A stretch of DNA of 64,000 nucleotides from an uncultured Actinomyces sp. GTDB lineage: Bacteria; Actinomycetota; Actinomycetes; S36-B12. Shown here one piece after another: positions 4,676 to 39,035 of the stretch. Position numbers and translations under genes: made by a program. Each line of letters begins with the position of its first letter. The first letter of the stretch is position 1. The notes beneath the pieces were generated by a model, which saw nothing but the letters and a program-made list of their open reading frames with translations, did not search any database and had not been told where the DNA came from. The stretch is taken from assembly GCA_964537955.1 (NCBI GenBank), contig CAZICY010000004.1:9316-73315 (forward strand), given 5' to 3'.

Positions 4676-6198
4676 GCTCCCGCCTCGGCGTCCCAGGTGC
4701 GCCCGGCGACGAGCTCGGGCTTGGCGACGCGCTCCGAGGGAGTGCGCGGCAGGTCGGCGCGGGCCTCCCAGTAGCGGGGCACCTTGAAGCGCGCGATGCG
4801 CTCGGTGCAGAAGGGGCCCAACTCTGCGGCTGCCTGCTCGGCATCGCGGTCGTCGGTGAGCACGAGGTAGGCCTTGACCTCCTCCCCGCGGATCTCGTCG
4901 GGCACTCCCACGACCGCAGCCATGCGCACGGCCGGGTGCGAGAGCAGCGTGTCCTCGACTTCGCGGGCGGCGATGTTCTCGCCGGCGCGGCGCACGACCT
5001 CCTTGAGCCGGCCGACCAGGGTGATCACCCCGGCCTCGTCGCGGCGGGCGAGATCCCCGGTGTGCAGCCAGCCGCCGCGAAACACCTCAGCCGTCGCCTC
5101 GGGCTCGTCGTCGTAGCCCGACATCATCCCCGGCCCGCGCAGGACGAGCTCGCCGATCGCGTCCGCGGGCAGGTCGGCGCCGTCGGTGTCGACAATGCGC
5201 GCCTCGCGGCCGGGCTTGGCCACTCCGATCGCACCCGAGCCGACGAGGGAGTCGTGCTCGAGGTCGGTGACGTGGATGTCACCGCCGGTCTCGGTCATGC
5301 CGAACACTTCGAACCACGGTGTGCCCCAGCGTTCCTCGAGTTCCGCGTGGCGCGCAGGCGGGATCGCCGAGCACTGGATGACGCGCACGCGATGATCTCG
5401 ATCGCGCGGGTCCGGGGCCGTGGTGAGCATGAGCACCGGCATGGACGCCAGGCAGTAGAAGTAGGTGACGCCGTGCTCGCGCACGCGGTCCCAGAAGCTC
5501 GACGGGTGGAATCCGTCGAGCACGACGAGCGAGGCTCCGCTCACCAGCGATGCAGCGAGGTTCCACTGCGGGTCCATGTAGGACATCGCCTGCGCCGTGA
5601 GCATCCGATCGTCGGGCGTGAGGCGCGGGAATCCGTCGACGAGGCTGGTAGCCAGATGCAGCCAGTAGCGGTGGGAGAGAAGGCATCCCTTCGGGTGACC
5701 CGTGGTGCCCGAAGTGAACTGCACGTTGACGACGTCATCCGGGTCGTGCACATCGGGCAGGGGCGCGTCGTCATCGGCATCCTCGGCGAAGGCGGCCACG
5801 TCGATGACGGGGACGTCCACGGGTGCGATGCCCGCGACGAGCTCCGGTGTCGTGACCAGCACGATCGCGCGCGACTTGGCGAGGATCCAGCCGGCATCGT
5901 CTCGGCGCAGCCTGGTGTTGAGCGGCACGCAGGCCGCTCCGAGGCGCGCGAGCGCGAGCCAGGTGAGCGCAGCCTCAGGCCTATTGCGCAGGAGCACGGC
6001 CACGCGGTCGCCCGCTCGCACCCCGCGCGCCCGAAGGTGGCGTGCGATCCGGTCGGTCCCCTCGGCGACCTGCGCGAAGGTGAGGCGCGCAGACTCCTCC
6101 GGCCCATCGCGCAGGTCGAAGACCCAGGCCGTTGCGTCAGGCCACAGATCAGCAGCACGGCGCACGGCCTCGGGCAGGGTGTGCGGGGCATCGTGCAC
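4663..6198 (-). CDS. AMP-dependent synthetase/ligase (acyl-CoA synthetase family)
   Basis: 511 aa with the AMP-binding motif FTSGTTGHPKG, plus GWLHTGDLARRDEAG and the C-terminal lysine region FKVPRYW. Confidence 0.85.
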   Translation of the reverse strand: MHDAPHTLPEAVRRAADLWPDATAWVFDLRDGPEESARLTFAQVAEGTDRIARHLRARGVRAGDRVAVLLRNRPEAALTWLALARLGAACVPLNTRLRRDDAGWILAKSRAIVLVTTPELVAGIAPVDVPVIDVAAFAEDADDDAPLPDVHDPDDVVNVQFTSGTTGHPKGCLLSHRYWLHLATSLVDGFPRLTPDDRMLTAQAMSYMDPQWNLAASLVSGASLVVLDGFHPSSFWDRVREHGVTYFYCLASMPVLMLTTAPDPRDRDHRVRVIQCSAIPPARHAELEERWGTPWFEVFGMTETGGDIHVTDLEHDSLVGSGAIGVAKPGREARIVDTDGADLPADAIGELVLRGPGMMSGYDDEPEATAEVFRGGWLHTGDLARRDEAGVITLVGRLKEVVRRAGENIAAREVEDTLLSHPAVRMAAVVGVPDEIRGEEVKAYLVLTDDRDAEQAAAELGPFCTERIARFKVPRYWEARADLPRTPSERVAKPELVAGRTWDAEAGAWLP

Positions 6199-6199
6199 G

Positions 6200-7714
6200 T
6201 CAGTACCTCAGCGGACAGACGACATCGCGCCGCGGGATCTTGAGGTTGACGAGGTAGCGGGTGATGGGGCGATCGACGCAGGAGGTGGTGCGGCCGTAGA
6301 CGATGTGGTGCGTCCCGCCGTACTGCACCGTCCGCGCGCCTGCGAAGGCGCGCGACATCTCCACGGCGGCTGTCCAGGGCGTGCGGTTGTCGGCGAAAGC
6401 ATTGGCGATCAGCGGCGCTGTCGTGAGCGTGATCGGCGCGAGGATCTGCGGAATCGGCCGGCCGAAGCGGGGGAGTCCGGCGCACTGCGCGCCCTCGCGG
6501 AGCACTGCCTGGCCGACGTGCACCCCGCCCGCTGCGGCTCCCTCGCGTGCGATTTCCGCGAGCCTGGCGGCCGTGGGCCGGTCGGGCATGTCTGAGCAGT
6601 TGACGTAGGTCCACTGCGGGCCGAACCACCCCTTGGACACAGGCCCATCGGAGGGCGTGAGCATGCGGGCTGCGGCGTCGACGGACTGCTGACGCTCGCG
6701 CGCGTCACGCGCGCGCAGGCCCGCGTCGACGCGATCGAGCAGGGCTGCGACGGAGCTCCACGTGGACTGGTAGGAAGCCCAGCTGATGATGTCCTTGCCC
6801 ACGGTCCAGCGCGTGATGCGGCTGCCGTCGCTGGAGCGCAGGGTGCGCGTCTGCAGGGACGACATGACCCGGTCGTACTTTGCGCGGTACGCCGGTCCGA
6901 GCGCGCTGAGCATCGTGTCGATAGCCAGGGGGTCGTCCCAGGTGTGCTCCCGGGCCCACAACTCGATCGTGGACAGCGGCGAGATGACACCGTCCAGCAG
7001 GAGGGCGCGCACGCGATCGGGGAAGTACTGGGCGTAGGCGCGACCGACCGTGGACCCGTAGCTCATGCCCCAGAAGGTGAGGTTCTCCTCGCCGAGTGCA
7101 GCGCGCAGCGCGTCCAGGTCGCGCACGAGCTGCCATGTGCCGACGTACGGCGCATGCCGACGGTTGGCGTCGAAGCAGCCCGCCGCGGCCTCGCCGTTGA
7201 CACGCAGGTACTTATCGGCCCAGGCATCCCAGTCGACCGGGCCGGTCTTGGGGGGAGCGATGTCCTTGACGCTGCACCCGGAGATGCTCGGCTCCGAGCC
7301 GCCCACACCGCGCGGATCCCAGGCCACGATGTCGAATCGGTCCCGCACCCGCTGGGGGAGCATGCCCTGCACCCACGTGATGTTCGAGACCGCTGCCGAC
7401 CCGGGGCCGCCCGGGTTGAAGGTGAGGACGCCGATGCGCTCCGACGGCTTCTCCGCGGGGATTCGCGCCACCGAGATGCGGTAGGTGCCGTCCACTCGCC
7501 GGTCGCCCCAGTCGCGCGGCACGGTGAGAGTGGCGCAGCGCGCCTTGCTGGGCATGGAGGATCCGCAGGCGCGCCAGTCGAGCGAGGCGCGGGGTGCGGG
7601 CTCGGAGCGAACCGGTGGTGAGTCGGGCAAGCCTGGGGCAGCAGTCGCCGGCGCCGTGCCGATGAACGGCACGCACACGGCCAGGCTGGCGAAGACGATC
7701 CCGGCCCTGCGCAC
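6200..7714 (-). CDS. Secreted alpha/beta hydrolase, Streptomyces tripeptidyl-aminopeptidase (Tap)-like
   Basis: GTG at complement 7712-7714 gives signal VRRAGIVFASLAVCVPFIGTAPATAAPG. The nucleophile elbow is FWGMSYGS. The 614-aa track ORF overlaps the next real gene, so I trimmed its N-terminal extension. Confidence 0.7.
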   Translation of the reverse strand: MRRAGIVFASLAVCVPFIGTAPATAAPGLPDSPPVRSEPAPRASLDWRACGSSMPSKARCATLTVPRDWGDRRVDGTYRISVARIPAEKPSERIGVLTFNPGGPGSAAVSNITWVQGMLPQRVRDRFDIVAWDPRGVGGSEPSISGCSVKDIAPPKTGPVDWDAWADKYLRVNGEAAAGCFDANRRHAPYVGTWQLVRDLDALRAALGEENLTFWGMSYGSTVGRAYAQYFPDRVRALLLDGVISPLSTIELWAREHTWDDPLAIDTMLSALGPAYRAKYDRVMSSLQTRTLRSSDGSRITRWTVGKDIISWASYQSTWSSVAALLDRVDAGLRARDARERQQSVDAAARMLTPSDGPVSKGWFGPQWTYVNCSDMPDRPTAARLAEIAREGAAAGGVHVGQAVLREGAQCAGLPRFGRPIPQILAPITLTTAPLIANAFADNRTPWTAAVEMSRAFAGARTVQYGGTHHIVYGRTTSCVDRPITRYLVNLKIPRRDVVCPLRY

Positions 7715-22993: not shown

Positions 22994-24388
22994 TCAGGGC
23001 TCGGCGCGCTCGAGGCGGAATCCGCTCGTGTCGCCGGGGAGCAGTGCTTGAGCGCTCACGCGAGTCCAGGTCGCGTCCGCCGGCCCTCCTGCGGGCGCCG
23101 ATGTCGTCACGGGGAGGAGTCGGAAGGGGAAGTCGTCGTTGACGATGGCGTAGCCCACCGCCTCCACGCCGGCAAAGCGGCCGTCGGCCTTCTCGGTGAA
23201 GGTGAACGTCGTCAGCAGCCCGTCTCCCGTGCGCGGATCTTTGCGCGATTGCGCAGAGAGCAGATTGCCGTGCCCGTAGGCGACCCACATGTCGCCGACC
23301 TTCGTCACCGGCTGGACGACGTGCGCGTGATGTCCGAGGACGAGGTCAACGAGTCCCGACTCGGCGAGCTCGTCGATCACGGTGCGCTGCTCAGCCGTGG
23401 GTGCGGCGATGCCCTCGACGCCGTGATGCAACGACACCACGACGAGTCGGGCGCCGGCCTCGCGGGCGCGCTGGGCGGCTGCCGTGATGACCCCCGGCTC
23501 GATGAGGTTGCAGCACCAGTCCTGCGGGCGGGGGATGCCGTTGAAGCCGTAGGTGTAGGAGAGCAGGGCGACCGGGACGCCTTGGACGTCGATCAAGGTG
23601 GTGCGCTCGGCGTCGGCCTTCGACGCAGCAGAGCCCGCGTGTGCCAGTCCTGCACCCTCGAGGGCCTGGAGGGTGCTCACGACCCCGTCGAAGCCGCGAT
23701 TGAGCATGTGATTGCTGGCGGTGGAGCACGCATCGAACCCGATCTCGGCGACCGCGTCCGCAATCTGCGGGGGGCCGTAGGGAGGGTCTGGCCATGCGCT
23801 CCACGGGCCCTCGCGTGAGCCGAGCGCGTACTCCATGTGGCAGACGGCGAGATCAGCCGACTCGATGAGGGGGCGAATGCCTTCGAGCTGCGGCCTGAAG
23901 TCAGGCGTGCCGCCGCCATCGCTGATCGCCTGGGCGATGATCTCCTTGTGCAGGAGGATGTCGCCGACACCGGCGATCGTGATCGTGCGTCGCTCGGACC
24001 TGGGCACGAAGACCGCAGGCACGGCCTGCGCATCGGTCATGTCGGCGACCGCATCGGCGATGTCGAATCCTGCCGGATCCTGGGCGGCGTCGGCTTCGAG
24101 CTTGCGCTCTCCGGCGGAATGGTCATCTTGCTGCGCGAGCGATGACGTGGGAGCCGACGGAGTGACCGTGGGCGTGCTCGCGGCCGCGGGGGCTGTCCCC
24201 CCGAGGTTGGGATACCAGCCCACGATGAGCCCGGTGAGCAGGCTGGCGACGCCGAGCGCGGCGAGGTCCCGGGGGCGCGGCAGGCGCCAGCCGGCGTGAG
24301 CGTGGCGACCAGGGCCCGTCGGCCGGGCCGGTGTGCCCGCCCCCCGGGCTGGTGAGCCCGCCCCCCGGGGCGCCGCGTGCCTACCCAT
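22994..24388 (-). CDS. CapA-family (PGA_cap) metallophosphatase-like protein with N-terminal membrane anchor
   Basis: Start re-derived to ATG 24388 (MGRHAAPR…). ITIAGVGDILLH…, SLHHGVEG and GHHAHVVQP are CapA/metallophosphoesterase motifs. Confidence 0.7.
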   Translation of the reverse strand: MGRHAAPRGAGSPARGAGTPARPTGPGRHAHAGWRLPRPRDLAALGVASLLTGLIVGWYPNLGGTAPAAASTPTVTPSAPTSSLAQQDDHSAGERKLEADAAQDPAGFDIADAVADMTDAQAVPAVFVPRSERRTITIAGVGDILLHKEIIAQAISDGGGTPDFRPQLEGIRPLIESADLAVCHMEYALGSREGPWSAWPDPPYGPPQIADAVAEIGFDACSTASNHMLNRGFDGVVSTLQALEGAGLAHAGSAASKADAERTTLIDVQGVPVALLSYTYGFNGIPRPQDWCCNLIEPGVITAAAQRAREAGARLVVVSLHHGVEGIAAPTAEQRTVIDELAESGLVDLVLGHHAHVVQPVTKVGDMWVAYGHGNLLSAQSRKDPRTGDGLLTTFTFTEKADGRFAGVEAVGYAIVNDDFPFRLLPVTTSAPAGGPADATWTRVSAQALLPGDTSGFRLERAEP

Positions 24389-24512
24389 GGCACATGAGTA
24401 TCGGCAGTCACTGGCGTCACATGTGGGAGCCACGCGGGTGGTGGGGATCGTGAGGTGGCCACGGCGTGGTCTTCGAGCCTCGCCCGGGCCCTGTGCCAGG
24501 GTCGTATCTCCC

Positions 24513-26183
24513 ATGACCGCACTCGCCCAGGCACCCCGGACGCCGTACCTGCGCGACTGGCAGATCCGCGCGCTCCAGCGCTACGTCGAGGCCCACGCCC
24601 GCGACTTCCTCGTCACGGCCACGCCCGGTTCGGGCAAGACGACGTTCGCGCTGACCCTCGCGGGGCGCCTGCTCGCGCAGCGGGTCGTGCATCGCGTGAT
24701 CGTGGTCGTGCCCACCGATCACCTGCGTGGCCAGTGGGCCGATGCTGCGTCAGGCCTCGGCCTGTGGCTGGATCCCGACCTGCCCAATGCGGTCGGTCCG
24801 GTGCGCGAGGGCACGCTCGGCTACGTCGCCACCTACGCCCAGGTGGCCGCCAAGCCGATCCTGCACCGCAACCGCGCCGAGGCACGACCGAGCCTGGTGA
24901 TCATGGACGAGGTGCACCATGCGGGCGATGGACTCACCTGGGGCGATGGCCTGCGCGAGGCCTTCGACACCGCGAAGCGCCGGCTGGCCCTGAGCGGCAC
25001 GCCTTTCCGCACCAAGGCGGACGAGCGGATCCCCTTCGTCTCCTACGAGGTGGACGGCGACGAGGTGCGGTCGATGGCGGACTTCTCCTATTCCTATGGG
25101 GATGCGCTCGCCGATGGCGTCGTGCGACCAGTCGTGTTCGCCGCCTACACCGGGGTCTCCCGGTGGATGAACGACGCGGGCGATGCCTACGCCGCGACGC
25201 TCGGCAGCGGCAGCAAGAAGGACGAGGACAAGGCGTGGCGCACCGCGCTGTCGCCCACCGGCAGATGGGTCCCCCATGTCATCGCCGCGGTGGATGAGAG
25301 GGTGCGCGCGCAGCGCGCTGCGGGAATCGAGGATGCAGCCGGCATCATCCTCGCCAACGACCAGGAGACCGCGCGCGCCTATGCCGCCGTCGCCGCCCGC
25401 GTCACCGGCGAGGAGCCCGCCGTCGTCCTCTCCGAGGACCCCGATGCCTCCGAGCGCCTCACTGCCTTCACCCACGGCCGCACGCGGCTCGTCGTCTGCG
25501 TGCGCATGATCAGCGAGGGTGTCGACATCCCTCGCGCGACGACGCTGGGTTATCTCTGCTCAGCGCGCACGCCGCTCTTCTTCGCGCAGGCCGTGGGTCG
25601 TGTGGTGCGTGCCCGAGGCGCCCAGGAGACGGCGTCGGTCTATCTCCCCGCCGTGCGCCCCCTGCTGGCGCTCGCCGCGGAGATGGAGTCGGCGCGCAAC
25701 GCGGTCGTGCGTGTGAGCGCACGCGACGACCATGACCTCGACCCCGATGTCGAGCGGATCCCGGGCGAGGGCTTCACCGCGCTCGATGCCGACGCGCAGT
25801 TCGCCCACGTGCTCACCGCCGGGCGTGCGATCACGGCCGAGTCGCTCGAAATGGATGAGGAGTCCGCCGACTACCTCGGCCTGCCGGGTCTGCTCAGCCC
25901 GGAGGACATGGCGACCGTGCTCGCCGCCCGGGATGCGAAGCTGAGGCGCCAGGTTGCCGCGGTCACCGACGACGTGCCCTTCACTCCCGCGACGTGGCGT
26001 GACACGCAGGAGGTCCGCAAGGACATCCATCGCATGGTGAGCGTGCTCGCTGCGCGCACGGGCAAGCCGCACGGCCAGATCCACGCCGAACTCCGCGAGG
26101 TGATCCCGGGGGCACCGACCGCGGTCGCGGACTACGACACGCTGGTGGCGCGCCACGACCACCTCATGACCCTCGTGGTCTGA
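24513..26183 (+). CDS. Superfamily-2 DEAD/DEAH-box (DEVH) helicase, ResIII-like
   Basis: Start re-derived to ATG 24513. Walker A TPGSGKT, motif II MDEVHH, motif III LSGTPFR, motif VI QAVGRVVR. Confidence 0.75.
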   Translation: MTALAQAPRTPYLRDWQIRALQRYVEAHARDFLVTATPGSGKTTFALTLAGRLLAQRVVHRVIVVVPTDHLRGQWADAASGLGLWLDPDLPNAVGPVREGTLGYVATYAQVAAKPILHRNRAEARPSLVIMDEVHHAGDGLTWGDGLREAFDTAKRRLALSGTPFRTKADERIPFVSYEVDGDEVRSMADFSYSYGDALADGVVRPVVFAAYTGVSRWMNDAGDAYAATLGSGSKKDEDKAWRTALSPTGRWVPHVIAAVDERVRAQRAAGIEDAAGIILANDQETARAYAAVAARVTGEEPAVVLSEDPDASERLTAFTHGRTRLVVCVRMISEGVDIPRATTLGYLCSARTPLFFAQAVGRVVRARGAQETASVYLPAVRPLLALAAEMESARNAVVRVSARDDHDLDPDVERIPGEGFTALDADAQFAHVLTAGRAITAESLEMDEESADYLGLPGLLSPEDMATVLAARDAKLRRQVAAVTDDVPFTPATWRDTQEVRKDIHRMVSVLAARTGKPHGQIHAELREVIPGAPTAVADYDTLVARHDHLMTLVV

Positions 26184-26189
26184 GCACGC

Positions 26190-26513
26190 CTAGGGACGGG
26201 GCATGTCGGCGACCTGCACGTCGAAGCCCACGTCCTCGCCGTCGACTGTCTCGACAGTGATCGTGACGTCGTAGGTGTTGCCCAGTGCGGGATCCCCGAT
26301 GACGCAGACGATGGATGCGCCCACCTCCGCAGTCAGGTCGGACGGACACTCAAGCGGGGGCATCTCCTCGAGCGGGATGCCCTGCGACTCGGCGAGGGCG
26401 GCAGTGGCCTTCTCCTCGACCTCTGTCGACGAGAGCGAGGGGGTGCCGACGCTGACGGTGCATGCCGTCAGCGTGGCGATGCAGCAGGCGAGGGTGAGCA
26501 TGGGCATCTTCAT
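26190..26513 (-). CDS. DUF4333-like lipoprotein
   Basis: Signal MKMPMLTLACCIATLTAC (lipobox). …LECPSDLTAEVGASIVCVIGD…YDVTITVETVDG resembles DUF4333. Confidence 0.6.
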   Translation of the reverse strand: MKMPMLTLACCIATLTACTVSVGTPSLSSTEVEEKATAALAESQGIPLEEMPPLECPSDLTAEVGASIVCVIGDPALGNTYDVTITVETVDGEDVGFDVQVADMPRP

Positions 26514-26616
26514 GCAGACACGGTAGGTAGCCCGACGTGAACCCAGCCCCTGTGCGCGGTCGCACTTCGGTCATCGCTCGGTCATAGCCGAGTGACTGGT
26601 GAGCGTGGTGCACCGC

Positions 26617-27837
26617 TCAGGGGCGTCCGTGCACCTCGTCGGCTGCGCGCAGCCCACTGCGCAGGGCCCCCTCCATCAGCCCGGAACGCTCGCCTGCCGT
26701 GTGCTCGCCTGCGATGTGCACGCGGCCCACGGGTGCGGCGATCAGCTCGTCGTCGCCGGGCTCGCTCGCAGCACCCAGTCCGGAGTAGGCGAACGTCGCC
26801 CAGGGATCGTCGTCCCACGTGCTGAGCAGGGTGTGCTCCGTAGCGAGGTCCAGTTCGGGACGCAGATCCTCGAGCGCCTGGAGCCACTCGTGGGGTCCTT
26901 CGGCGACGTCGAGCCCGGTGAGCGCGGGCGCCGAGCCCGAGAAGCAGTGCACGACGGGCTGCACTTCGCCGCTGACATCGGTGGCGGTCCAGCACCAGAA
27001 GCGGCGCGCCACGTCGAGCACTGCGCTCGCCGGCGCTGGTGAGGCGAGGGACACGTGCAGTTTGGCCGCGCGCCCGCGTGCCATGCGCGCCATGGCGTCG
27101 CGCTGCTTGCCGGATAGCCCCGGTTGCAGGTCGAATCGCTCGAGGAGGGGCAGCGGGATCGCCATGACGACGGCGTCGGCATCCAGGATCGACCCGAGCA
27201 CGTGAACCCGCACCCCATCCTCCGTGGCGTGCACCGCGGTCGCAGGTGCGCCGAGTCGCACGCGATCGCCGAGTGCTGCGGCGAGCGAGCGGGCGATGCG
27301 CTGGTTGCCCCCGCCGATGCGCGCGGTGGGCAGGGGCTGCACAGAGGTGACGGAGTCCAGGAGCACGTGGCAGGACAGTTGGTCCTCGGGAGCCGCCCAG
27401 CTGATGGCCGCGCGTGCGGCCAGCACCTGCGCGGCGGCGCTGCCCGGTGCGTGCTCGACGAGGAAGTCGCGCAGGCTCACGCGCCGATCCGTCGCCTCTG
27501 CTGCGGGCCGCAGGTCCTGCGCTACCGCCGCGACATCCTGCGCGCTGATGGGCTGCGAGGCCTGGCGTGGCTCGCGCACGTAGTAGGACATGCCCGAGGA
27601 AGCGACCGGCAGGTCGAAGCGCCGCGCCAGGTCGTGCATGACGTCGTAGCCGGAGAGCACGAACTCCGCACCGCACTCGACGACGGTCTCCGGCCGGCCG
27701 GGGATGAGCTCCTGCGACCACACGCGCCCGCCGACGCGGTCGCGGGCCTCGAGCACCGTGACGTCGTGGCCGAGCCCGACGAGTCGGTCCGCGCACGCCA
27801 GACCGGCGAAGCCGGCCCCGATCACGATGACGCGCAC
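26617..27837 (-). CDS. Flavin-containing amine oxidase (canonical domain order)
   Basis: GTG 27837 gives VRVIVIGAGFAGLACADRLVGLGHDVTVLEARDRVGGRVWS. The C-terminus TWDDDPWATFAYS…GRVHIAGEHTAGERSGLMEGALRSGLRAADEV is the canonical amine-oxidase C-terminal FAD segment. Confidence 0.8.
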   Translation of the reverse strand: MRVIVIGAGFAGLACADRLVGLGHDVTVLEARDRVGGRVWSQELIPGRPETVVECGAEFVLSGYDVMHDLARRFDLPVASSGMSYYVREPRQASQPISAQDVAAVAQDLRPAAEATDRRVSLRDFLVEHAPGSAAAQVLAARAAISWAAPEDQLSCHVLLDSVTSVQPLPTARIGGGNQRIARSLAAALGDRVRLGAPATAVHATEDGVRVHVLGSILDADAVVMAIPLPLLERFDLQPGLSGKQRDAMARMARGRAAKLHVSLASPAPASAVLDVARRFWCWTATDVSGEVQPVVHCFSGSAPALTGLDVAEGPHEWLQALEDLRPELDLATEHTLLSTWDDDPWATFAYSGLGAASEPGDDELIAAPVGRVHIAGEHTAGERSGLMEGALRSGLRAADEVHGRP

Positions 27838-27895
27838 CGTCCCAGTCTGGCGTAGCCGTGAAGCCACGGGGGTAGGGTCCGCCCGAGGAGGCATC

Positions 27896-28069
27896 ATGGA
27901 CGAGAAGACGAAGAAGGACGTCAAGGACGGCGGAGAGCATCTCCTCCACGGCGTGGAGGACGCTGCTGACGTGGTCGGTCACGGCGTGACCGGGGCCGTG
28001 AAGGGCGTCGCTGATGGGGTGGAGAGCGCGTCCGCCGAGACGAGGGTGCGCGAGGCGGACTCAGCGTAG
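27896..28069 (+). CDS. Small hydrophilic protein (57 aa), unknown function
   Basis: ATG 27896 is preceded by GAGGAGG. Its Gly/Val/Asp-rich, charged composition is consistent with a stress-protein-like polypeptide. No family was recognised. Confidence 0.4.
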   Translation: MDEKTKKDVKDGGEHLLHGVEDAADVVGHGVTGAVKGVADGVESASAETRVREADSA

Positions 28070-28097
28070 GCACCTGCTCACGCCTCGGACCCCGTGA

Positions 28098-28679
28098 TTA
28101 GGACGTGGTCACTACCCGTCGGACCACTCCGGAGCTGGAGACCGCGACGCTGATGGTGTCGGTGGTGTCCTGCCCCTTGCTGCGTGTGCGCGTCGTGGCC
28201 TGGAAGGCCCGCGCCGTCCCCGTGGGGATGCGCAGGGAGAGCACGACCGAGCCCTTTCCCTGGAGCACGGTCGTGAGGGTGCCACCCCCCGCGCACGCTC
28301 CGACGGTGGTGAATGCCCCTCCGGCGCTGCCTCCCGCGCAGTAGGCGAGGTCCACGCGGTTGGCTCCGTTGCCGTAGGGCCCCGTGTGGCTCAGCGTGAG
28401 GGTGGCGACATCGAGGTCGCCGATGTTCTGGAGGAAGAAGATCTGCCCCCACGAGTTGTCGGCGTTCAACGACACGGTGAGAGGCCCCGTGGTGTTGGTG
28501 GCCACCTGCTCGGGCAAGACGGCGGAGATCCGATACGTGGCCGTGAGGACCGACATCTGCAGGAAGTTCGATGACGTCGCCATGGTCGCGCCCCGGGCGC
28601 CGAGGGGGGCGGCGGCAACGGATGCCGCCACCGCCCCCACGACGATCGCTCGCAGGGAGTGAAGCCCGAAGCGCCCCAT
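28098..28679 (-). CDS. TasA/camelysin-like exported protein, copy 2
   Basis: Start re-derived to ATG 28679. N-terminal MGRFGLHSLRAIVVGAVAASVAAAPLGARGATMATSSNF. FFLQNIGDLDVATLTLS resembles the TasA 'F.N.G.l' block. It ends in …VVTTS. The start lies 14 nt downstream of the copy-1 stop. Confidence 0.55.
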   Translation of the reverse strand: MGRFGLHSLRAIVVGAVAASVAAAPLGARGATMATSSNFLQMSVLTATYRISAVLPEQVATNTTGPLTVSLNADNSWGQIFFLQNIGDLDVATLTLSHTGPYGNGANRVDLAYCAGGSAGGAFTTVGACAGGGTLTTVLQGKGSVVLSLRIPTGTARAFQATTRTRSKGQDTTDTISVAVSSSGVVRRVVTTS

Positions 28680-28693
28680 AGGACCGGGACTGC

Positions 28694-29365
28694 CTACGAC
28701 GTGGTGGTGGTCGTGCTGCGCATCGTCTCGCTCAGCGTCCACGTCAGGGCGGCGGTCTTGCCCTGCACGGTGTTGGCTGGCGGTACGCCGTTCACCGTCG
28801 TTTCGTTCGTGTCCGGGAGCGTGATGGCGAAGCGGAGATGGATCTCCTGGCCGGCAAGGATGTTGGCGCCCGCCGGCGTCGTCGGAACCACCGGGAGCGC
28901 GAGCGGGGTCGACTTGAGGGCAACTGCGGTCGAGGTGCCGAGGCTGGTCGACGTGCCCGCACAGGCACCCGATGCCGGCGTCCAGGCGACGCTGCACTGG
29001 GAAACCGTGACGCTGAGGCCCCTTGTCGCGTCCGTCGTGAGGACGCTGTTGACCGAATCCGAGAGAGACAGCCGCAGGTCCTGGGCATCGAGATTGCCGT
29101 TGTTGGTGTACTTCACGTAGCGGTAGACGGTGTCACCCGGCGCCATCTTGTCGATCGGCGTCGTGAAGCCATTGCCGTTGTCCGCCTGGATCAGGCTCAA
29201 TGTGCCAGCAGTAGTTGCCGTCGGCGTCGTATTGAAGCTTTCGGCCGAGAGTGTCGCGTAGACGGTCGTCACGATCAAGGTGAGTCCGCCGACTGCGGCG
29301 AAGGCCAGGACTGCCGCGCGCCCGAGTGCCGTTGCAGCTGGGCCCGGTGTGGAAATGATTGCCAT
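28694..29365 (-). CDS. TasA/camelysin (peptidase M73-like) exported protein, copy 1
   Basis: TAGTLSLIQADNG…IDKMAPGDTVYRYVKYTNNGNLDAQDL parallels B. subtilis TasA SGTLDLSAKE…LKPGDKLTKDFQFENNGSLA. The C-terminal QGKTAALTWTLSET parallels TasA QGNSIKLQFSFEAT. It has an N-terminal hydrophobic signal. Confidence 0.65.
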   Translation of the reverse strand: MAIISTPGPAATALGRAAVLAFAAVGGLTLIVTTVYATLSAESFNTTPTATTAGTLSLIQADNGNGFTTPIDKMAPGDTVYRYVKYTNNGNLDAQDLRLSLSDSVNSVLTTDATRGLSVTVSQCSVAWTPASGACAGTSTSLGTSTAVALKSTPLALPVVPTTPAGANILAGQEIHLRFAITLPDTNETTVNGVPPANTVQGKTAALTWTLSETMRSTTTTTS

Positions 29366-29374
29366 GCAGATCTC

Positions 29375-29971
29375 CTAAGCATCTGCGGACGAGATGTCCG
29401 CGAGGACGGGACTGGCTCCTTCGGGCCTCCCTTCGCCGGATAGGTGGGTGCCGACCTGTCGTCGGCCCAGCGCGAAGAGGGCGAGCGCCATGACGTTGGC
29501 GCCCACAAGGAGTGTCACCGCGAGCCGCTGGGCGTCGGCTGACGCGAGGTACGCGAGCGGCGAGCCGATCGCAGGGATGCGCCAGATCACGCGAGGCAAC
29601 TCGTGCGTGGCAGAGACCAGGACCGGGTCGGTGTCGAGCTGGGCGTTTGCGTCGCCCTTGGTGGTGAAGCGGTTGAGGCCGTTGAGGACCCTGGACTCGA
29701 CGACTCGATGAGCGACGGTCGCGCCTGCCGCCTCGACCACGATGACGTCGCCCACGCTGACGGTGCCCGCACTCGAGATCTTGGTCACGATGAGATCCCC
29801 CGCATCAATCGCGGGCGTCATGCTTCCTGTCAGGACGGTCGTAACGCCGATTCCCCATGACGCGCGCGCGACCGTGGGCATGAGGAGCAGCACGAGCGTT
29901 GCTACCGCCATGAGGATGAGCGGCCATCGTTGTCGCGCGGCTCTTGTCTCGGGCGCAGCCATGCCGGACAT
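29375..29971 (-). CDS. Signal peptidase I, archaeal/ER-type (S26B, SipW-like)
   Basis: VLTGSMTPAIDAGDLIVTK…VGDVIVV…TVAHRVV…FTTKGDANAQLDTDPV aligns block by block with B. subtilis SipW (SGSMEP…GSLILVK…GDVITF…VTHRIV…KTKGDNN). ATG 29971 is chosen; 29962 and 30046 are alternatives. Confidence 0.75.
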   Translation of the reverse strand: MSGMAAPETRAARQRWPLILMAVATLVLLLMPTVARASWGIGVTTVLTGSMTPAIDAGDLIVTKISSAGTVSVGDVIVVEAAGATVAHRVVESRVLNGLNRFTTKGDANAQLDTDPVLVSATHELPRVIWRIPAIGSPLAYLASADAQRLAVTLLVGANVMALALFALGRRQVGTHLSGEGRPEGASPVLADISSADA

Positions 29972-30254
29972 GCTAGGAATCGTTGCGACGAATTCACCCG
30001 TGAGAGAAGTCAACGAATGGGCTGTTGAACGCCGACGACCAGTCATGGTCAGTCGTTGTGACCGGGCACGGGCGGATGATTGCCCACGAGAGGCTTGGGG
30101 GAACCCGGTGGCCTGGGCCGGTTTCGAGTCGCCGAACTTCCGAGGGTGAGGACGAACCAGAGTGTCTTCAGGGTGCGTCCCCATCCTTTGGGGCTCATCG
30201 ATCCCGTGCGGGGGGCGCGGACCCGGATTTGTCAGCCGGGGAGACGCCTGCTAG

Positions 30255-30352
30255 TTTCCTCTCCAACATCAAGAGCGACTGAGAGACCTGGCTCGCTGAA
30301 GTCGCAGCAACCCCTCGGGGTGCTAATGCCAGGACCGATGTGGAGGAAACAT
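30255..30352 (+). promoter_or_regulatory. SAM riboswitch, SAM-I clan (S-box-like core; no obvious canonical P4)
   Basis: CUCCAACAUCAAGAG-CGACUGAGAGACCUGGCUCGCUGAAGUCGC-AGCAACC-CCCCUCGGGG-UGCUAAUGCCAGGACC-GAUGUGGAG. The P1 strands pair (one bulge). P2 has a k-turn-like UGAGAGA/UGAA. The AGCAACC junction is present. CCUGGC/GCCAGG have pseudoknot potential. Confidence 0.7.
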
Positions 30353-30529
30353 CATGAGGTCCATGCGCTCTGTTCCGCTCACGCGACGTCGGGTCGTCGA
30401 CCACATGCGCATGGACGGCTGCCTCTGTCCCTGGATGCCGGGCCTCTAGGCCCTCCCTGCACGACCCCTTCAGGGCTCCTCCCACGAGAGGAGGCCCTCC
30501 GCATCCACGCACGCCACGAGAGGCTTCCC

Positions 30530-31315
30530 ATGACTGCCCCCCTCCCGGCCACCCTGCCGGCCACGAGCCGCACGGCTCAACCCGCCACGGTCGACGTCAC
30601 GGACGTGAGCAAGGAGTTCACGACGTCCAGCGGGCGCATCCCCGTCCTGCGCGACGTCTCGCTGCACATCGCGCCCGGTGAGACCGTCGCCCTGCTCGGC
30701 CCGAGTGGCTGCGGCAAGTCGACCCTGCTGCGTCTCATCGCAGGACTCGACACGCCGACCACCGGATCCGTCACCGTGGACGGTCAACTCGTCTCGGGTG
30801 TCGACACGCGCTGCTCGATCGTGTTCCAGGAGCCGCGACTGCTTCCGTGGAAGACCGTGGGGTCCAACGTCCGCCTAGGAGCTCGCGGCGGTGCCCACCA
30901 GGACGAGGTCGATGCCTGGCTCGAACTCGTCGGCCTCGATGGGTTCGCGTCCTACCTGCCCAAGCAGATCTCGGGCGGCATGGCGCAGCGCACCGCCTTG
31001 GCCAGGGCCCTCATCGGCCACCCGGGCGTGCTGCTCCTCGACGAGCCCTTCGCGGCGCTCGACGCGCTCACCCGACTGCAGATGCAGGACCTGCTCGCCC
31101 AGGTCACCGAGGCGCTCGGCACGACGGCCTTGCTCGTCACGCACGATGTCGACGAGGCCCTCTATCTCGCCGATCGCGTCATCGTGCTCGGCCAGCGTGC
31201 GGAGGGCATCGTCGACGTCGTCGATGTGCCCTTCGGTCACCCCCGCGATCGCGGAGATGCCCGCCTTGCCCCTCTGCGCGCCTCCCTGCTCCGGAGGTTC
31301 GGCATCCACACCTGA
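30530..31315 (+). CDS. ABC transporter ATP-binding protein, NitT/TauT (sulfonate/nitrate/taurine) family
   Basis: Start re-derived to ATG 30530. Walker A GPSGCGKST, signature ISGGMAQRTALARAL, Walker B LLLDEPFAALD. Confidence 0.85.
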   Translation: MTAPLPATLPATSRTAQPATVDVTDVSKEFTTSSGRIPVLRDVSLHIAPGETVALLGPSGCGKSTLLRLIAGLDTPTTGSVTVDGQLVSGVDTRCSIVFQEPRLLPWKTVGSNVRLGARGGAHQDEVDAWLELVGLDGFASYLPKQISGGMAQRTALARALIGHPGVLLLDEPFAALDALTRLQMQDLLAQVTEALGTTALLVTHDVDEALYLADRVIVLGQRAEGIVDVVDVPFGHPRDRGDARLAPLRASLLRRFGIHT

Positions 31316-31366
31316 CCCTTCCCACCCCCTAGCCGTCCCACTTCCCCTATCGACTTTGGAGTTCAC

Positions 31367-32377
31367 ATGTCCCATGCACGTCGCCAACCCCGTCTCGTCG
31401 CGGCGCTCTCACTCGCTGCCATCGCAGGCCTGACGCTCGCCGCCTGCGCTTCGGGCGAGGGAGGGTCCGCAGAGGATTCCTCCACCCTGTCCTTGGACTA
31501 CGCCTACTACAACCCCCTGAGCCTCGTCGTGCGCGACCAGGGATGCGTCGAGGCGGCAGTCGCCGACCAGGGCACCACCGTGGAGTGGATCCTGTCGACC
31601 GGCAGCAACAAGGCCAACGAGAACCTCAACGCCGGCGTGCTCGACATCGGCTCCACGTCAGGAGCGGCCGCTCTCGCTGCACGGGCCAACGGCGGTGCCA
31701 TCAAGACGATTGGCGTCTTCTCGCAGCCCGACTGGGCAGCCATCGTCGTCCCTGCCGACTCGACCATCACCGACGTCGCGGGCCTCAAGGGAACCAAGGT
31801 CGCCGCCACGAAGGGCACCGATCCCTACTTCTTCCTCCTGCAGGCGCTCAATGAGGCAGGGCTGAGCCAGACCGACGTGGAGATCATCAACCTCCAGCAC
31901 GCTGATGGCCAGGCAGCTCTGGTGCGCGGAGACGTCCAGGCATGGGCCGGCCTCGACCCCATCACCGCGCAGGCGGAGGCCAACGACGGCGTGAAACTGA
32001 TCTACCGCAACATCGACTTCGCTTCGTACGGCGTGCTCAACGCCCGCGAGGCCTTCCTCGAGTCATCGCCGGAACTGGTCGAGACAGTCCTCGGCTGCTA
32101 CGAGCAGGCACGCGCCTGGATCAAGGCCAACCCCGACGAGGCAGCGGCGCTCCTCGCCAAGGAAGCATCCCTCGATCCGGAGGTCGCCCGCGTGGTGCTC
32201 ACCGAGCGCACGGTGACCGACATCTCGATCGTGCCCGCCGACGCGCAGCGTCAGGTGCTCGAGAGGATCCTGCCGATCCTCGTCGCCGAGGGCCAGGTCC
32301 GCTCCGAGGAAGAGGTGCGCGCGGCACTCGACAGCCTCTACGCACCCGAGATCGCCCAGAAGGTCGCCTCGTCATGA
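31367..32377 (+). CDS. ABC transporter substrate-binding lipoprotein, SsuA/NMT1-like
   Basis: Signal …LAAIAGLTLAAC (lipobox). Its size and position between the ATPase and permease genes fit the NitT/TauT family. Confidence 0.75.
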   Translation: MSHARRQPRLVAALSLAAIAGLTLAACASGEGGSAEDSSTLSLDYAYYNPLSLVVRDQGCVEAAVADQGTTVEWILSTGSNKANENLNAGVLDIGSTSGAAALAARANGGAIKTIGVFSQPDWAAIVVPADSTITDVAGLKGTKVAATKGTDPYFFLLQALNEAGLSQTDVEIINLQHADGQAALVRGDVQAWAGLDPITAQAEANDGVKLIYRNIDFASYGVLNAREAFLESSPELVETVLGCYEQARAWIKANPDEAAALLAKEASLDPEVARVVLTERTVTDISIVPADAQRQVLERILPILVAEGQVRSEEEVRAALDSLYAPEIAQKVASS

Positions 32378-33222
32378 CGACACACGCGCCGACGCCGCCC
32401 CGTGTCGAGCCCCGCAAGGGGCTCGACACGGACGAGGCGACTCCCTCGGGCTCGTCCCGGGAGAGTCGCCTCGCCTCGCGTCTCGGCAATGCCGCGCTCG
32501 GGCTCATCGTCCCGGCCGGGCTGCTCCTGCTGTGGATCACGCTCGCGGCGAACGGCTCCTTCTCGAGCAGCCAGCTCCCCTCCCCGGGAGAGGTTCTCGC
32601 GGGACTCGTCGAGCTCATCGAGCGCGGCACCTTCTGGACGCATGTCGCCATCACGATCCAGCGGGTCCTGCTCGGTTTCGCGGCGGGCGCGACGCTCGGC
32701 ATCATCGTCGGTTCGCTCGTGGGGCTTTCCCCGTGGGCGAGTCGTCTCTTCGCCCCGACCATCCATGCGATTCGCGCGGTGCCATCGCTGGCCTGGGTGC
32801 CCGTGCTCGTGCTGTGGCTCGGGATCTACGAGGGCCCCAAGGTGACGCTGGTGGCGATCGGTGCGTTCTTCCCCGTCTTCACGACCGTTGCCGCGGGCTT
32901 CCAGCACGCTGACCGCAGGCTCATCGAGGTGGGTCGCGCGTACGGCCTGCGCGGGTTCAAGCTCGCCACCCAGGTGATCCTGCCGTCGGCTGCGCCGACG
33001 ATCTTCTCCGGCCTCAGGCTCGGCCTCGCGCAGAGCTGGCTCTTCGTCGTCGCCGCCGAGCTCATCGCGAGCTCCAAGGGGCTCGGCTTCCTGCTCATCG
33101 ACTCTCAGAACACGCTGCGCACCGACATCCTCCTGCTATCGATCATCCTGCTTGCCCTTCTCGGCAAGACCACGGACTTCCTCCTATCCCTCATCGAACG
33201 GAGAGTGCTCCGATGGACCTGA
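32374..33222 (+). CDS. ABC transporter permease, SsuC/TauC-like
   Basis: ATGA overlap with the SBP gene. It has 6 TM helices and a BPD-transporter EAA-like loop (…ADRRLIEVGRAYGLRGFKLATQVILPSAAP). Confidence 0.8.
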   Translation: MTTHAPTPPRVEPRKGLDTDEATPSGSSRESRLASRLGNAALGLIVPAGLLLLWITLAANGSFSSSQLPSPGEVLAGLVELIERGTFWTHVAITIQRVLLGFAAGATLGIIVGSLVGLSPWASRLFAPTIHAIRAVPSLAWVPVLVLWLGIYEGPKVTLVAIGAFFPVFTTVAAGFQHADRRLIEVGRAYGLRGFKLATQVILPSAAPTIFSGLRLGLAQSWLFVVAAELIASSKGLGFLLIDSQNTLRTDILLLSIILLALLGKTTDFLLSLIERRVLRWT

Positions 33223-33247
33223 TCGCCTTCGGACGAAGGGCAGCGAC

Positions 33248-34543
33248 GTGAGCGACCGCGAGTGGGGCTTCCGCACGCGCGCCCTGCATGCGGGCGGTGC
33301 CCCCGACCCGACGACCGGCGCGCGTGCCGTGCCCATCTTCCAGACGACGAGCTTCGTCTTCGAGGACAGCGATGACGCGGCTGCGCTCTTCGCCCTCCAG
33401 AAGTACGGCAACATCTATTCGCGCATCGGCAATCCGACCGTGGCCGCCTTCGAGGAGCGCATCGCGTCCCTCGAGGGAGGGCTCGGCGCGGTGGCGACGG
33501 GCAGCGGCCAGGCCGCGGAGTTCCTCGTCTTCGCCGCCCTTGCCGGTGCAGGCGACCACATCGTGGCGTCCTCGTCGCTCTACGGCGGCACGGTGACCCA
33601 GCTCGCCGTCACCCTCCGTCGCTTCGGCGTGGAGACGACCTTCGTCTCCGGCGGGGATCCCGCGGACTTCGCCGCGGCGATCCGGGACAACACCAAGCTG
33701 GTCTTCGCCGAGGTGGTCGCCAACCCTTCCACCGATGTCGCCGACATCGCCGGGCTGGCTGACGTCGCACACGCGCATGGGGTCCCCCTCGTGGTGGATG
33801 CGACGACGGTCACCCCCTACCTCTGCCGCCCCATCGAGCATGGTGCCGACATCGTCGTCCACTCCGCGACGAAGTTCCTCGGAGGACACGGCACCGCACT
33901 CGGTGGCGTCATCGTGGACGCGGGTCGCTTCGACTGGGGAAGTGGTCGGTTCCCACACTTCACGGAGCCAGTCCCGACCTATGGCGACATCCGCTGGTGG
34001 GACAACTTCGGCGAGTACGCCTTCCTGACCAAGGTGCGCGTCGAGGATCTGCGCGACATCGGACCTGCCCTGTCGCCGTTCAATGCCTTCCTGCTCCTGC
34101 AAGGGGTCGAGACGCTCCCGCAGCGCATGCGCGAGCACGTCGCGAACGCTCGGCGCGTCGCCGAGTGGCTCGCGGAGGATCCCCGCGTGGCATGGGTGAG
34201 CTACTCCGGCCTGCCCGGGCATCGCGACCATGAGCGTGCCCGCACCTACACGCCCGAGGGTCCCGGCGCCGTCTTCTCCTTCGGCATCAAGGGAGGAGCC
34301 CCTGCCGCGGAGGCCTTCATCGGCAACGTCCGCCTGCTCAGTCACCTCGCCAACATCGGTGATGCCCGGAGCCTGGTGATCCATCCCGCCAGCACGACGC
34401 ACCGCCAACTCTCGCCGCAGCAGCTCGTGGAAGCAGGGGTGCCGGACGACCTCATCCGCCTGAGCATCGGGCTTGAGGACGTCGACGACATCCTGTGGGA
34501 CATCGACAGTGCGCTCACAGCGGCGACGGGAGTATCCCGATGA
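33248..34543 (+). CDS. metY: O-acetylhomoserine aminocarboxypropyltransferase (sulfhydrylase), PLP-dependent
   Basis: GTG 33248. FRTRALHAGGAPDPTTGARAVPIFQTTSFVF, YSRIGNPTVAAFEERIASLEGG and the PLP-lysine context VHSATKFLGGHG. Confidence 0.85.
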   Translation: MSDREWGFRTRALHAGGAPDPTTGARAVPIFQTTSFVFEDSDDAAALFALQKYGNIYSRIGNPTVAAFEERIASLEGGLGAVATGSGQAAEFLVFAALAGAGDHIVASSSLYGGTVTQLAVTLRRFGVETTFVSGGDPADFAAAIRDNTKLVFAEVVANPSTDVADIAGLADVAHAHGVPLVVDATTVTPYLCRPIEHGADIVVHSATKFLGGHGTALGGVIVDAGRFDWGSGRFPHFTEPVPTYGDIRWWDNFGEYAFLTKVRVEDLRDIGPALSPFNAFLLLQGVETLPQRMREHVANARRVAEWLAEDPRVAWVSYSGLPGHRDHERARTYTPEGPGAVFSFGIKGGAPAAEAFIGNVRLLSHLANIGDARSLVIHPASTTHRQLSPQQLVEAGVPDDLIRLSIGLEDVDDILWDIDSALTAATGVSR

Positions 34544-38754: not shown

Positions 38755-38828
38755 TGGCCAGGGGCGGGGTCGAACCGCCGACCTTCCGATTTTCAGTCGG
38801 ACGCTCGTACCAACTGAGCTACCTGGCC
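38755..38828 (-). tRNA. tRNA-Phe (GAA)
   Basis: Reverse complement: GGCCAGGTAGCTCAGTTGGTACGAGCGTCCGACTGAAAATCGGAAGGTCGGCGGTTCGACCCCGCCCCTGGCCA. Cloverleaf arms pair, and the anticodon loop CTGAAAA gives GAA. Confidence 0.95.
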
Positions 38829-38867
38829 GTGCGGGCCGCAAGGCGGCCCTGGCCGCTTGTGGCGGCC

Positions 38868-38944
38868 TGGCGACCCCGACGGGACTCGAACCCGCGACCT
38901 CCGCCGTGACAGGGCGGCGCGCTAACCAACTGCGCTACGGGGCC
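38868..38944 (-). tRNA. tRNA-Asp (GTC), CCA encoded
   Basis: Reverse complement: GGCCCCGTAGCGCAGTTGGTTAGCGCGCCGCCCTGTCACGGCGGAGGTCGCGGGTTCGAGTCCCGTCGGGGTCGCCA. The anticodon loop is CTGTCAC. Confidence 0.95.
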
Positions 38945-38962
38945 TCGGTGGTGCTGAGACCG

Positions 38963-39035
38963 TGTCCCCAACGGGATTCGAACCCGCGCTGCCGCCTTGA
39001 AAGGGCGGAGTCCTAGGCCGCTAGACGATGGGGAC
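38963..39035 (-). tRNA. tRNA-Glu (TTC)
   Basis: Reverse complement: GTCCCCATCGTCTAGCGGCCTAGGACTCCGCCCTTTCAAGGCGGCAGCGCGGGTTCGAATCCCGTTGGGGACA. The anticodon loop is CTTTCAA. Confidence 0.95.

Follow-up and report, generated by a model that had tools for sequence, protein, structure and literature searches.

The subject of this analysis is a set of three genes in a stretch of DNA of 64,000 nt from an uncultured Actinomyces sp. (NCBI GenBank assembly GCA_964537955.1, contig CAZICY010000004.1, positions 9,316 to 73,315 of the forward strand), which is referred to below as the window. The genes follow each other co-directionally on the minus strand and encode, in the direction of reading, a SipW-like signal peptidase, a protein of the TasA family (designated T1) and a more divergent protein (designated T2), with gaps of 9 nt (29366-29374) and 14 nt (28680-28693), respectively. 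Because of these short gaps and of the convergent orientation of the gene downstream, the trio is read as a single operon, from which the three genes would be co-transcribed. The original prediction, which had been made from the sequence alone, described three minus-strand genes 9 and 14 nt apart; its coordinates were confirmed, the trio was recovered as a conserved set in dozens of genomes, and the sequence blocks that it quoted (GSMTP, GDLIVTK, VAHRVV, TKGDAN, AGTLSL, MAPGDTVYRYVKYTNNGNLD, QGKTAALTWTLSET and FFLQNIGDLDVATLTLS) were all found in the translations.

The peptidase exceeded the cutoff of TIGR02228, the model for archaeal/endoplasmic reticulum (ER)-type signal peptidase I (66.6 bits versus 51.85), and stayed below that of the bacterial-type model TIGR02227 (21.3 bits versus 47). 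The sole solved relatives detected by sequence in the PDB were human SEC11A and SEC11C (E-value 2e-6), with which its Ser, His and Asp motifs were aligned (Table 1). In P-type signal peptidases, Lys stands at the place where the S26B enzymes have His. Because TIGR02228 is passed, TIGR02227 is failed and the SEC11A/C motifs align, the peptidase is assigned by sequence to the S26B Ser/His enzymes of the SipW kind and not to the P-type ones, as had been predicted, and it is regarded as a distant relative of Bacillus SipW, not as its orthologue. Two hydrophobic segments, one N-terminal (residues ~16-34) and the other near the C-terminus (residues ~150-168), were read directly from the sequence.

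T1 was matched by the Pfam family PF12389 (Peptidase_M73; TasA/camelysin) with an E-value of 1.5e-8 and 35.1 bits (gathering threshold 22.5), and the match spanned 176 of the 196 profile positions. A homologue of T1 with ~91% identity over 86% of the query is already named 'TasA family protein' by NCBI, and other homologues are annotated as 'spore coat-associated protein N' by the Joint Genome Institute (JGI). In the AlphaFold2 model of T1, which was built with 29 homologues, the core had predicted local distance difference test (pLDDT) values of 80-94. When this model was compared with 350,542 PDB chains, the best match was the TasA fibre 8aur_A (entry 8AUR; E-value 2.2e-7, template modelling (TM) score 0.52), and the TasA monomer 5of1_A (E-value 8e-3), the archaeal bundling pilus 7ueg (E-value 0.03) and CanA (E-values 0.04-0.1) followed further down, with chaperone-usher pilins and the donor-strand fibre CS20 also among the matches. 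When the family profile of T1 was compared with the PDB sequences, TasA came first, with GTLxL, PGD, NNGxL and a C-terminal QG..S..L strand aligned; a search of the PDB with the single T1 sequence gave no meaningful matches. The fold of T1 is thus modelled as a TasA-like jelly roll, and T1 is taken, from its sequence, as a distant member of the TasA family and not as the TasA orthologue. The claim that this first of the two exported proteins is TasA-like was therefore sustained by both the Pfam score above the gathering threshold and the TasA fibre as the best structural match.

The second protein is far less easily recognised. No match of T2 was obtained in the Pfam or NCBIfam models, TapA/YqxM included. 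The 70 positional orthologues of T2 likewise had no Pfam or NCBIfam match, with no PF12389 hit at an E-value of 0.1 or lower, and none of the 71 T2 sequences reached PF12389. Among the T1 and T2 orthologues of distant loci, no NCBIfam model scored above its cutoff, with sub-threshold TasA matches for two T1 and unrelated weak matches for two T2 proteins. All T2 homologues are annotated as 'hypothetical'. Nothing was found by pairwise BLASTP of T1 with T2, and hhalign of T1 with a shallow T2 alignment gave a probability of 1.5%, which is not significant. With diverse T2 relatives against the T1 alignment, hhalign gave 95.8% (E-value 7e-9), and with the 71 T2 positional orthologues against the T1 family it gave 98.1% (E-value 9e-14), with 157 aligned columns that run from the signal peptide through to the C-terminal residue. 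The residues paired in this alignment are the Ala at the predicted -1 site (A34 in T2, A41 in T1), the Asn four residues on (N38 and N45, respectively), N-x-G-x-L, a Cys pair (C..W....G.C.G) and the C-terminal tail. By an iterative hidden Markov model (HMM) search seeded with T2 in 2929 open reading frames (ORFs), T1 and T2 genes were recovered exclusively. T2 is therefore read at the sequence level as a remote paralogue of T1, visible at profile level only and with diverse alignments, and its place in the TasA superfamily, as an unnamed family, is assigned solely by the transitive, profile-level route. The prediction that the second protein is TasA-like stood in so far as remote homology with the first one was detected by hhalign, and did not stand as a direct detection, be it by TasA/M73, by Pfam or by pairwise BLAST. 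T2 was also considered as a TapA and rejected, since it matches no TapA/YqxM model and is homologous to T1 instead. A profile search with T2 of a whole library of 1.8 billion representative proteins returned 22 clusters only. Of the long multi-repeat matches of T2, the one that was checked (P0099, also P0106) was rejected as a relative, being an unrelated repeat protein; P0096 is a similar match.

Both proteins are conserved around the predicted end of the signal peptide. Among the 29 homologues of T1, L39 and A41 in the signal-peptide region are invariant and N45 is nearly invariant, and A34 and N38 are invariant among the close homologues of T2. Cleavage of T1 is predicted after Ala41 by analogy with the cleavage site of TasA, of which the mature form begins with AFN and the donor strand comprises residues 28-38 (PMC9674648). 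In the profile alignment, TAGTLSL of the T1 segment ESFNTTPTATTAGTLSLIQ is co-linear with the TasA residues preceding PGD...NNGSL. In the AlphaFold2 monomer of T1, residues 24-78 are without regular secondary structure and pLDDT is below 50 up to residue 59, which is what would be expected if this segment requires a partner.

At the other end of the proteins, the T1 and T2 families, which are otherwise ~20% identical, share the extreme C-terminus. The sequence TNS stands at the C-terminus of 40 of the 81 T1 sequences, with T-G/T/S-S in most of the others, and of 24 of the 71 T2 sequences; the window copies of T1 and T2 both end in ...TTS, as had been noted before and as was read in the translations. 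The Cys pair, with the two residues 10-15 positions apart, is kept invariant in both families.

The distribution of the trio was estimated by a scan in which one genome per species was used and by which 78 related loci were obtained. T2 lies directly after T1 in 72 of these, and the remaining six have a contig end within ~200 nt of T1. The complete trio, with the peptidase gene just before or just after the T1-T2 pair, is present in 67 of the 78 loci, most of the others being cut by contig ends, so that the survey of synteny across Actinomycetota proposed in the original prediction came out in favour of a conserved unit. With S for the peptidase, the order is S-T1-T2 in 33 loci and T1-T2-S in 30, plus variants, and in a few loci T1 or T2 is present in an additional copy or the peptidase is matched twice. 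The named genera are Arthrobacter, Pseudarthrobacter, Lentzea, Amycolatopsis, Actinokineospora, Saccharothrix, Umezawaea, Prauserella, Kineococcus and Tessaracoccus, and the carriers known as metagenome-assembled genomes (MAGs) are labelled Nanopelagicales, Planktophila, Microbacteriaceae, Frankiales, Mycobacteriales and Propionibacteriales; the closest loci are from MAGs labelled Nanopelagicales, Actinomycetales or 'uncultured Actinomyces'. Beyond clade-specific genes, no further conserved neighbour (anchor, regulator or chaperone) was found across the 78 loci. The trio is a self-contained, phylum-wide module. From its linkage with T1 and T2 and from the conserved -3/-1 residues of both proteins, the peptidase is predicted to process the two adjacent gene products.

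Several deviations from the usual arrangement were observed in single loci. Tandem duplication of T1 (T1-T1-T2) occurs in four of them (L041, L053, L066 and L073), and the second T1 has ~295 aa in L066 and L073. In L041 and L074, T1 and T2 are flanked by more than 5 kb on each side and no SipW-like gene was detected by tblastn; the peptidase gene of these two may lie at another place or may have diverged too far. T1 of L071 (6001-6587) is split over the overlapping ORFs 5947-6441 and 6339-6587, likely by a frameshift or an assembly error. In Arthrobacter and Pseudarthrobacter only, a small gene, which by eye resembles an Hpt-type phosphotransfer domain, lies directly after T2 (L013 at 7194-7649, and L020, L023, L032, L057 and L060).

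With a probability of about 60%, the trio is a SipW-processed, sortase-independent operon for a donor-strand-exchanged fibre, in which T1 would be the major subunit and T2 a minor one. T1 and T2 would leave the cell via Sec with long, atypical signal peptides, which would be trimmed by the co-encoded membrane peptidase after Ala41 and Ala34, respectively. By each cut, an N-terminal segment with the conserved Asn at +4 and a subsequent GT-x-x-L strand would be bared, and this segment would insert, as in TasA, into the beta-sandwich of the subunit that follows, to give a non-covalent donor-strand-exchanged polymer. T2 might supply the first donor strand or cap the end, which would be a TapA-like role performed by a TasA-like fold, or it might co-polymerise with T1 as CalY does with TasA. 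The Cys pair would probably form an extracellular disulfide, and the shared TTNS tail would probably make an inter-subunit contact; the C-terminal residues 239-261 of TasA become ordered in the fibre and form an inter-subunit interface (PMC9674648), which suggests one possible role for the tail of T1 and T2. Precedents exist for the donor-strand exchange of TasA and for the donor strand of TapA (PMC9674648), for the proposal that TapA supplies the first donor strand or caps the end (PMC9674648, PMC10151520), for TasA/CalY heterofilaments (PMC13082335) and for a sipW-bsaA-bsaB operon (PMC11580942).

Among the known systems, the closest analogue in gene order is sipW-bsaA-bsaB(-bsaC) of Clostridium perfringens, the closest one with two paralogues is sipW-tasA/calY of Bacillus cereus, and tapA-sipW-tasA of Bacillus subtilis serves as the mechanistic reference. 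In the C. perfringens operon sipW-bsaA-bsaB-bsaC (PMC11580942), a SipW-type peptidase, a major TasA-like protein and a divergent second TasA-like protein are encoded in the same order as in the trio, and in both cases TapA is absent and neither subunit has LPXTG; the trio, however, lacks both a vWA protein (BsaC) and a neighbouring sortase, and it has the Cys pair and the TTNS tail. In B. cereus (sipW-tasA ... calY; PMC13082335), two TasA paralogues are likewise linked to SipW, heterofilaments have been reported, TapA is absent and assembly is independent of sortase, as is proposed for the trio. The B. cereus system differs in its requirement for the chaperone-like CapP (PMC13082335), which has no counterpart at the trio, and in that TasA and CalY are both recognisable by PF12389, whereas T2 is too diverged for Pfam. 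In B. subtilis (PMC9674648, PMC10151520), an S26B peptidase, a TasA-fold subunit and a minor partner are also encoded in one operon, and the N-terminal motifs of T1 are co-linear with those of TasA (an Asn near the new N-terminus, GTLxL, PGD and NNGxL); in contrast to TapA, the partner in the trio is a TasA paralogue, and the gene order differs. Neither the Cys pair nor the TTNS tail could be recognised where TasA is aligned, for which no systematic check was made. The archaeal AbpA bundling pili, AbpX, Tafi and the CanA cannulae (PMC9245690; 10.64898/2026.01.04.697558; 10.1101/2024.12.30.630787) are also built from a jelly-roll subunit that carries its donor strand at the N-terminus, and the genes of AbpX, TafE and TasA often adjoin that of a TIGR02228-type signal peptidase, with minor or tip subunits encoded nearby. 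The structural similarity of these archaeal fibres with T1 is much weaker, as seen from the E-values of 7ueg and CanA given above; AbpX is calcium-dependent and very acidic, and larger loci, in which accessory and tip components are also encoded, have been reported for most AbpX homologues and for Tafi.

Several results weigh against the interpretation as a fibre operon. T1 scored 14.5 bits with the TasA equivalog NF046066 (cutoff 450) and, this sub-threshold match apart, with no NCBIfam family, and the peptidase scored 49.7 bits with the Bacillus SipW equivalog NF046067 (cutoff 190). The AlphaFold2 models of T1 and T2 are of moderate confidence, with mean pLDDT values of 69 and 63, respectively. 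The T2 model was matched by Foldseek in the PDB to generic jelly-roll or beta-sandwich proteins only, with TasA absent from the top 50, and no direct TasA match was obtained with the T2 family profile in the PDB sequences, nor any meaningful match with the single T2 sequence. Neither a TapA homologue nor a CapP homologue, an anchor or a regulator is present in the locus, and many of the carriers are planktonic freshwater lineages without described fibres. Polymerisation itself is indicated only indirectly, by the conserved N-terminal segment, which is without regular secondary structure in the T1 monomer model.

Some of these points speak for the main competitor, according to which T1 and T2 are secreted or surface-bound beta-sandwich proteins (adhesins, coat proteins or antimicrobials) that stay as monomers or small oligomers and are only processed by SipW, with no long fibre formed. 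Such a state has parallels, as the soluble monomer of TasA, which is self-complemented, is stable (PMC9674648) and BsaB of C. perfringens forms no long oligomers (PMC11580942), and it would fit both the resemblance of the T2 model to generic jelly rolls and the planktonic life of many hosts. Among the members of the TasA superfamily cited here that have been studied by experiment, however, all have a major subunit that polymerises; T1 is matched with the fibre 8aur_A well ahead of the monomer 5of1_A (2e-7 versus 8e-3), and conservation of the N-terminal segment extends to the T1 and the T2 families alike. The non-polymerising state is given a probability of about one in five.

A variant of the fibre, in which T1 and T2 form a branch of their own within the TasA superfamily and make an obligate two-subunit fibre, and in which the C-terminal tail and the Cys loop provide a second, C-terminal lock or attachment, is considered unlikely. 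The step at the tail could then take the form of contact between subunits, of covalent linkage, of glycosylation or of anchoring by means of a tag. We know of no such C-terminal lock or attachment step in the Bacillus, Clostridium or archaeal systems. If this variant were true, surface fibres would be present even in streamlined planktonic freshwater Actinomycetota.

It is similarly improbable that the trio was acquired recently as an accessory island; that it may be accessory had been suggested from a slightly lower GC content and from the unrelated genes on both sides. The GC content of the trio is indeed lower than the window mean (67.3% versus 69.6%, a difference of 2.3 points), the flanking genes are common only to the closest relative (L002), and the position of sipW flips between lineages. 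However, the difference is less than one standard deviation of the 500-nt windows (2.8 points), 17% of the windows of the same length are equally low or lower, and the GC content at third codon positions (GC3) of the trio (0.81-0.90, with the peptidase slightly lower at 0.81) overlaps that of its neighbours (0.84-0.87). The dip that had been judged by eye is thus real and small, and the claim of a compositionally distinct locus was not borne out; the dip being trivial, nothing speaks positively for a recent transfer. In addition, no mobile-element gene was found among the eight flanking ORFs scanned (repeats were not searched), the nearest tRNA genes are ~9 kb away, and the closer matches, as taken from the match list and not from a phylogeny, come mostly from similarly labelled lineages.

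Still less probable is a covalently locked fibre, with an isopeptide bond formed after strand exchange as in BsaA, with intermolecular disulfides, or with a reaction of the C-terminal tail. The near-invariant N45 in the presumed donor strand, the invariant E188, the invariant Cys pair and the strikingly conserved C-terminus would suit such a lock, for which BsaA with its intermolecular Asn-Lys isopeptide (N-E-K triad) is the precedent (PMC11580942). Among the 29 homologues of T1, however, Asn45 and Glu188 are conserved and no Lys is (K73, K84 and K203 all vary), so that the Asn-Glu-Lys triad is incomplete in T1, and the spacing of the two Cys residues by 10-15 positions within one loop is better suited to an intramolecular disulfide. 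That T1 is a camelysin-type (M73) metalloprotease with T2 as its partner or substrate, as the Pfam name Peptidase_M73 would imply, is hardly credible, as HExxH is absent from all 82 T1 and all 74 T2 sequences, His residues number fewer than 1.1 per sequence on average and are not conserved, and the M73 label itself is seen as a likely misidentification of CalY (PMC11580942).

A sortase-assembled Gram-positive pilus was rejected as a reading of the locus. LPXTG is present in none of the 81 T1 sequences and, as one chance match, among the 71 T2 sequences; sortase was found neither among the neighbours of the trio nor among the conserved neighbours across the loci, and neither sortase nor a TapA-like gene was found among the ORFs scanned with Pfam from 22994 to ~33200. 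The earlier statement that TapA, sortase and LPXTG are lacking is thus correct for the region examined, with LPXTG in neither subunit.

Among the protein scaffolds of Gram-positive biofilms, those best understood are the TasA-type fibres, and to our knowledge the experiments on them have so far been confined to Bacillota and a few archaea. Members of PF12389 in Actinobacteriota were recorded in a distribution survey (PMC9245690), and Actinomycetota sequences were placed in the central TasA cluster in a 2026 preprint (bioRxiv 10.64898/2026.01.04.697558). Such distribution notes were all that was found in the literature searched, the coverage of which was incomplete, and no functional study of TasA or SipW in Actinomycetota was among it, in keeping with the original prediction that the trio is functionally uncharacterised in high-GC Gram-positives. 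The novelty was overstated there, as the name 'TasA family protein' already exists at NCBI and sipW with two TasA paralogues is known in B. cereus and C. perfringens. The additions made here are modest: T2 is recognised as a hidden TasA paralogue, T1 and T2 are found to be invariably paired across the phylum, and two conserved features are described. The general picture of how such systems work is unchanged by the trio. Its interest lies in that a compact set of peptidase, major subunit and hidden paralogue spans many orders of Actinomycetota, including such culturable genera as Arthrobacter, Pseudarthrobacter, Amycolatopsis, Lentzea, Kineococcus and Tessaracoccus and abundant uncultured freshwater lineages, and offers a small and concrete gene set for asking whether actinobacteria make donor-strand fibres; T2 would be a second subunit family left as 'hypothetical' in current databases, and the Cys pair and the TTNS C-terminus are open to mutation.

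The coordinates of the genes and of the features within them are collected in Table 1.

Table 1. Genes and predicted features of the trio, in positions of the window.
Feature	Position	Strand	Remark
Peptidase gene	29375..29971	-	198 aa; SipW-like ER/archaeal-type (S26B) signal peptidase I
Ser50 codon (AGC), GSM motif	29822..29824	-	predicted nucleophile; aligns to Ser of SEC11A GSMEPA
His88 codon (CAT), AHRVV motif	29708..29710	-	predicted general base; aligns to SEC11A HRV
Asp107 codon (GAC), TKGDAN motif	29651..29653	-	aligns to SEC11A TKGDNN
T1 gene	28694..29365	-	223 aa; TasA-family protein, predicted major fibre subunit
T1 signal peptide, residues 1-41	29243..29365	-	cut L-S-A41 / E42 predicted; alternative V-Y-A37 / T38
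T1 mature N-terminal segment, ~residues 42-60, ESFNTTPTATTAGTLSLIQ	29186..29242	-	predicted donor strand (putative role)
T1 C-terminal tail, RSTTTTTS	28697..28720	-	family consensus R-x-A-T-T-T-N-S, from homologue sequences
T2 gene	28098..28679	-	193 aa; divergent TasA-superfamily paralogue, predicted minor subunit
T2 signal peptide, residues 1-34	28578..28679	-	predicted cut T-M-A34 / T35
T2 C-terminal tail, RRVVTTS	28101..28121	-	family consensus R-x-x-x-T-T-N-S; shared with T1, hhalign to the end
Divergent intergenic region	29972..30262 (~290 nt)	.	expected operon promoter, judged from position only

The ORF of the peptidase is open to 30184, and ATG at 29971 and at 29962 are equally plausible as the start. 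No entry identical to the exact 198-aa sequence was found in the protein collection searched, so the public gene calls probably use another start. The frame of T2 extends to 299 aa (28098-28997), and the start at 28679 is backed by homologues. Long overlapping ORFs on both strands and in several frames (24000-34000) were rejected as genes and regarded as by-products of the GC content of ~70%. By a consensus scan of 27600-30600, neither a sigma-70-like promoter nor an intrinsic terminator was found.

The ORFs scanned with Pfam around the trio encode an amine oxidase, a 57-aa protein, an ATP-binding cassette (ABC) transporter, a DUF4333 protein, a helicase and a PGA_cap protein; the convergent gene downstream of T2 is that of the 57-aa protein, followed by that of the amine oxidase. 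The PGA_cap protein (506 aa; 22994-24514, minus strand) is a CapA-like member of the poly-gamma-glutamate capsule synthesis family (E-value 1e-55), and its gene lies ~4 kb from the trio, with no further cap genes noticed nearby. The nearest tRNA genes are three in tandem at 38755-39035 on the minus strand. Divergently from the sipW-like gene, an S-adenosylmethionine (SAM) riboswitch (RF00162; 55.8 bits, gathering score 44.4) was found at 30263-30344 on the plus strand, at the head of an ABC transporter (ATPase, NMT1-type binding protein and permease) and sulfur-metabolism cluster, in which the ORF 33152-34543 resembles, by eye only, an O-acetylhomoserine sulfhydrylase.

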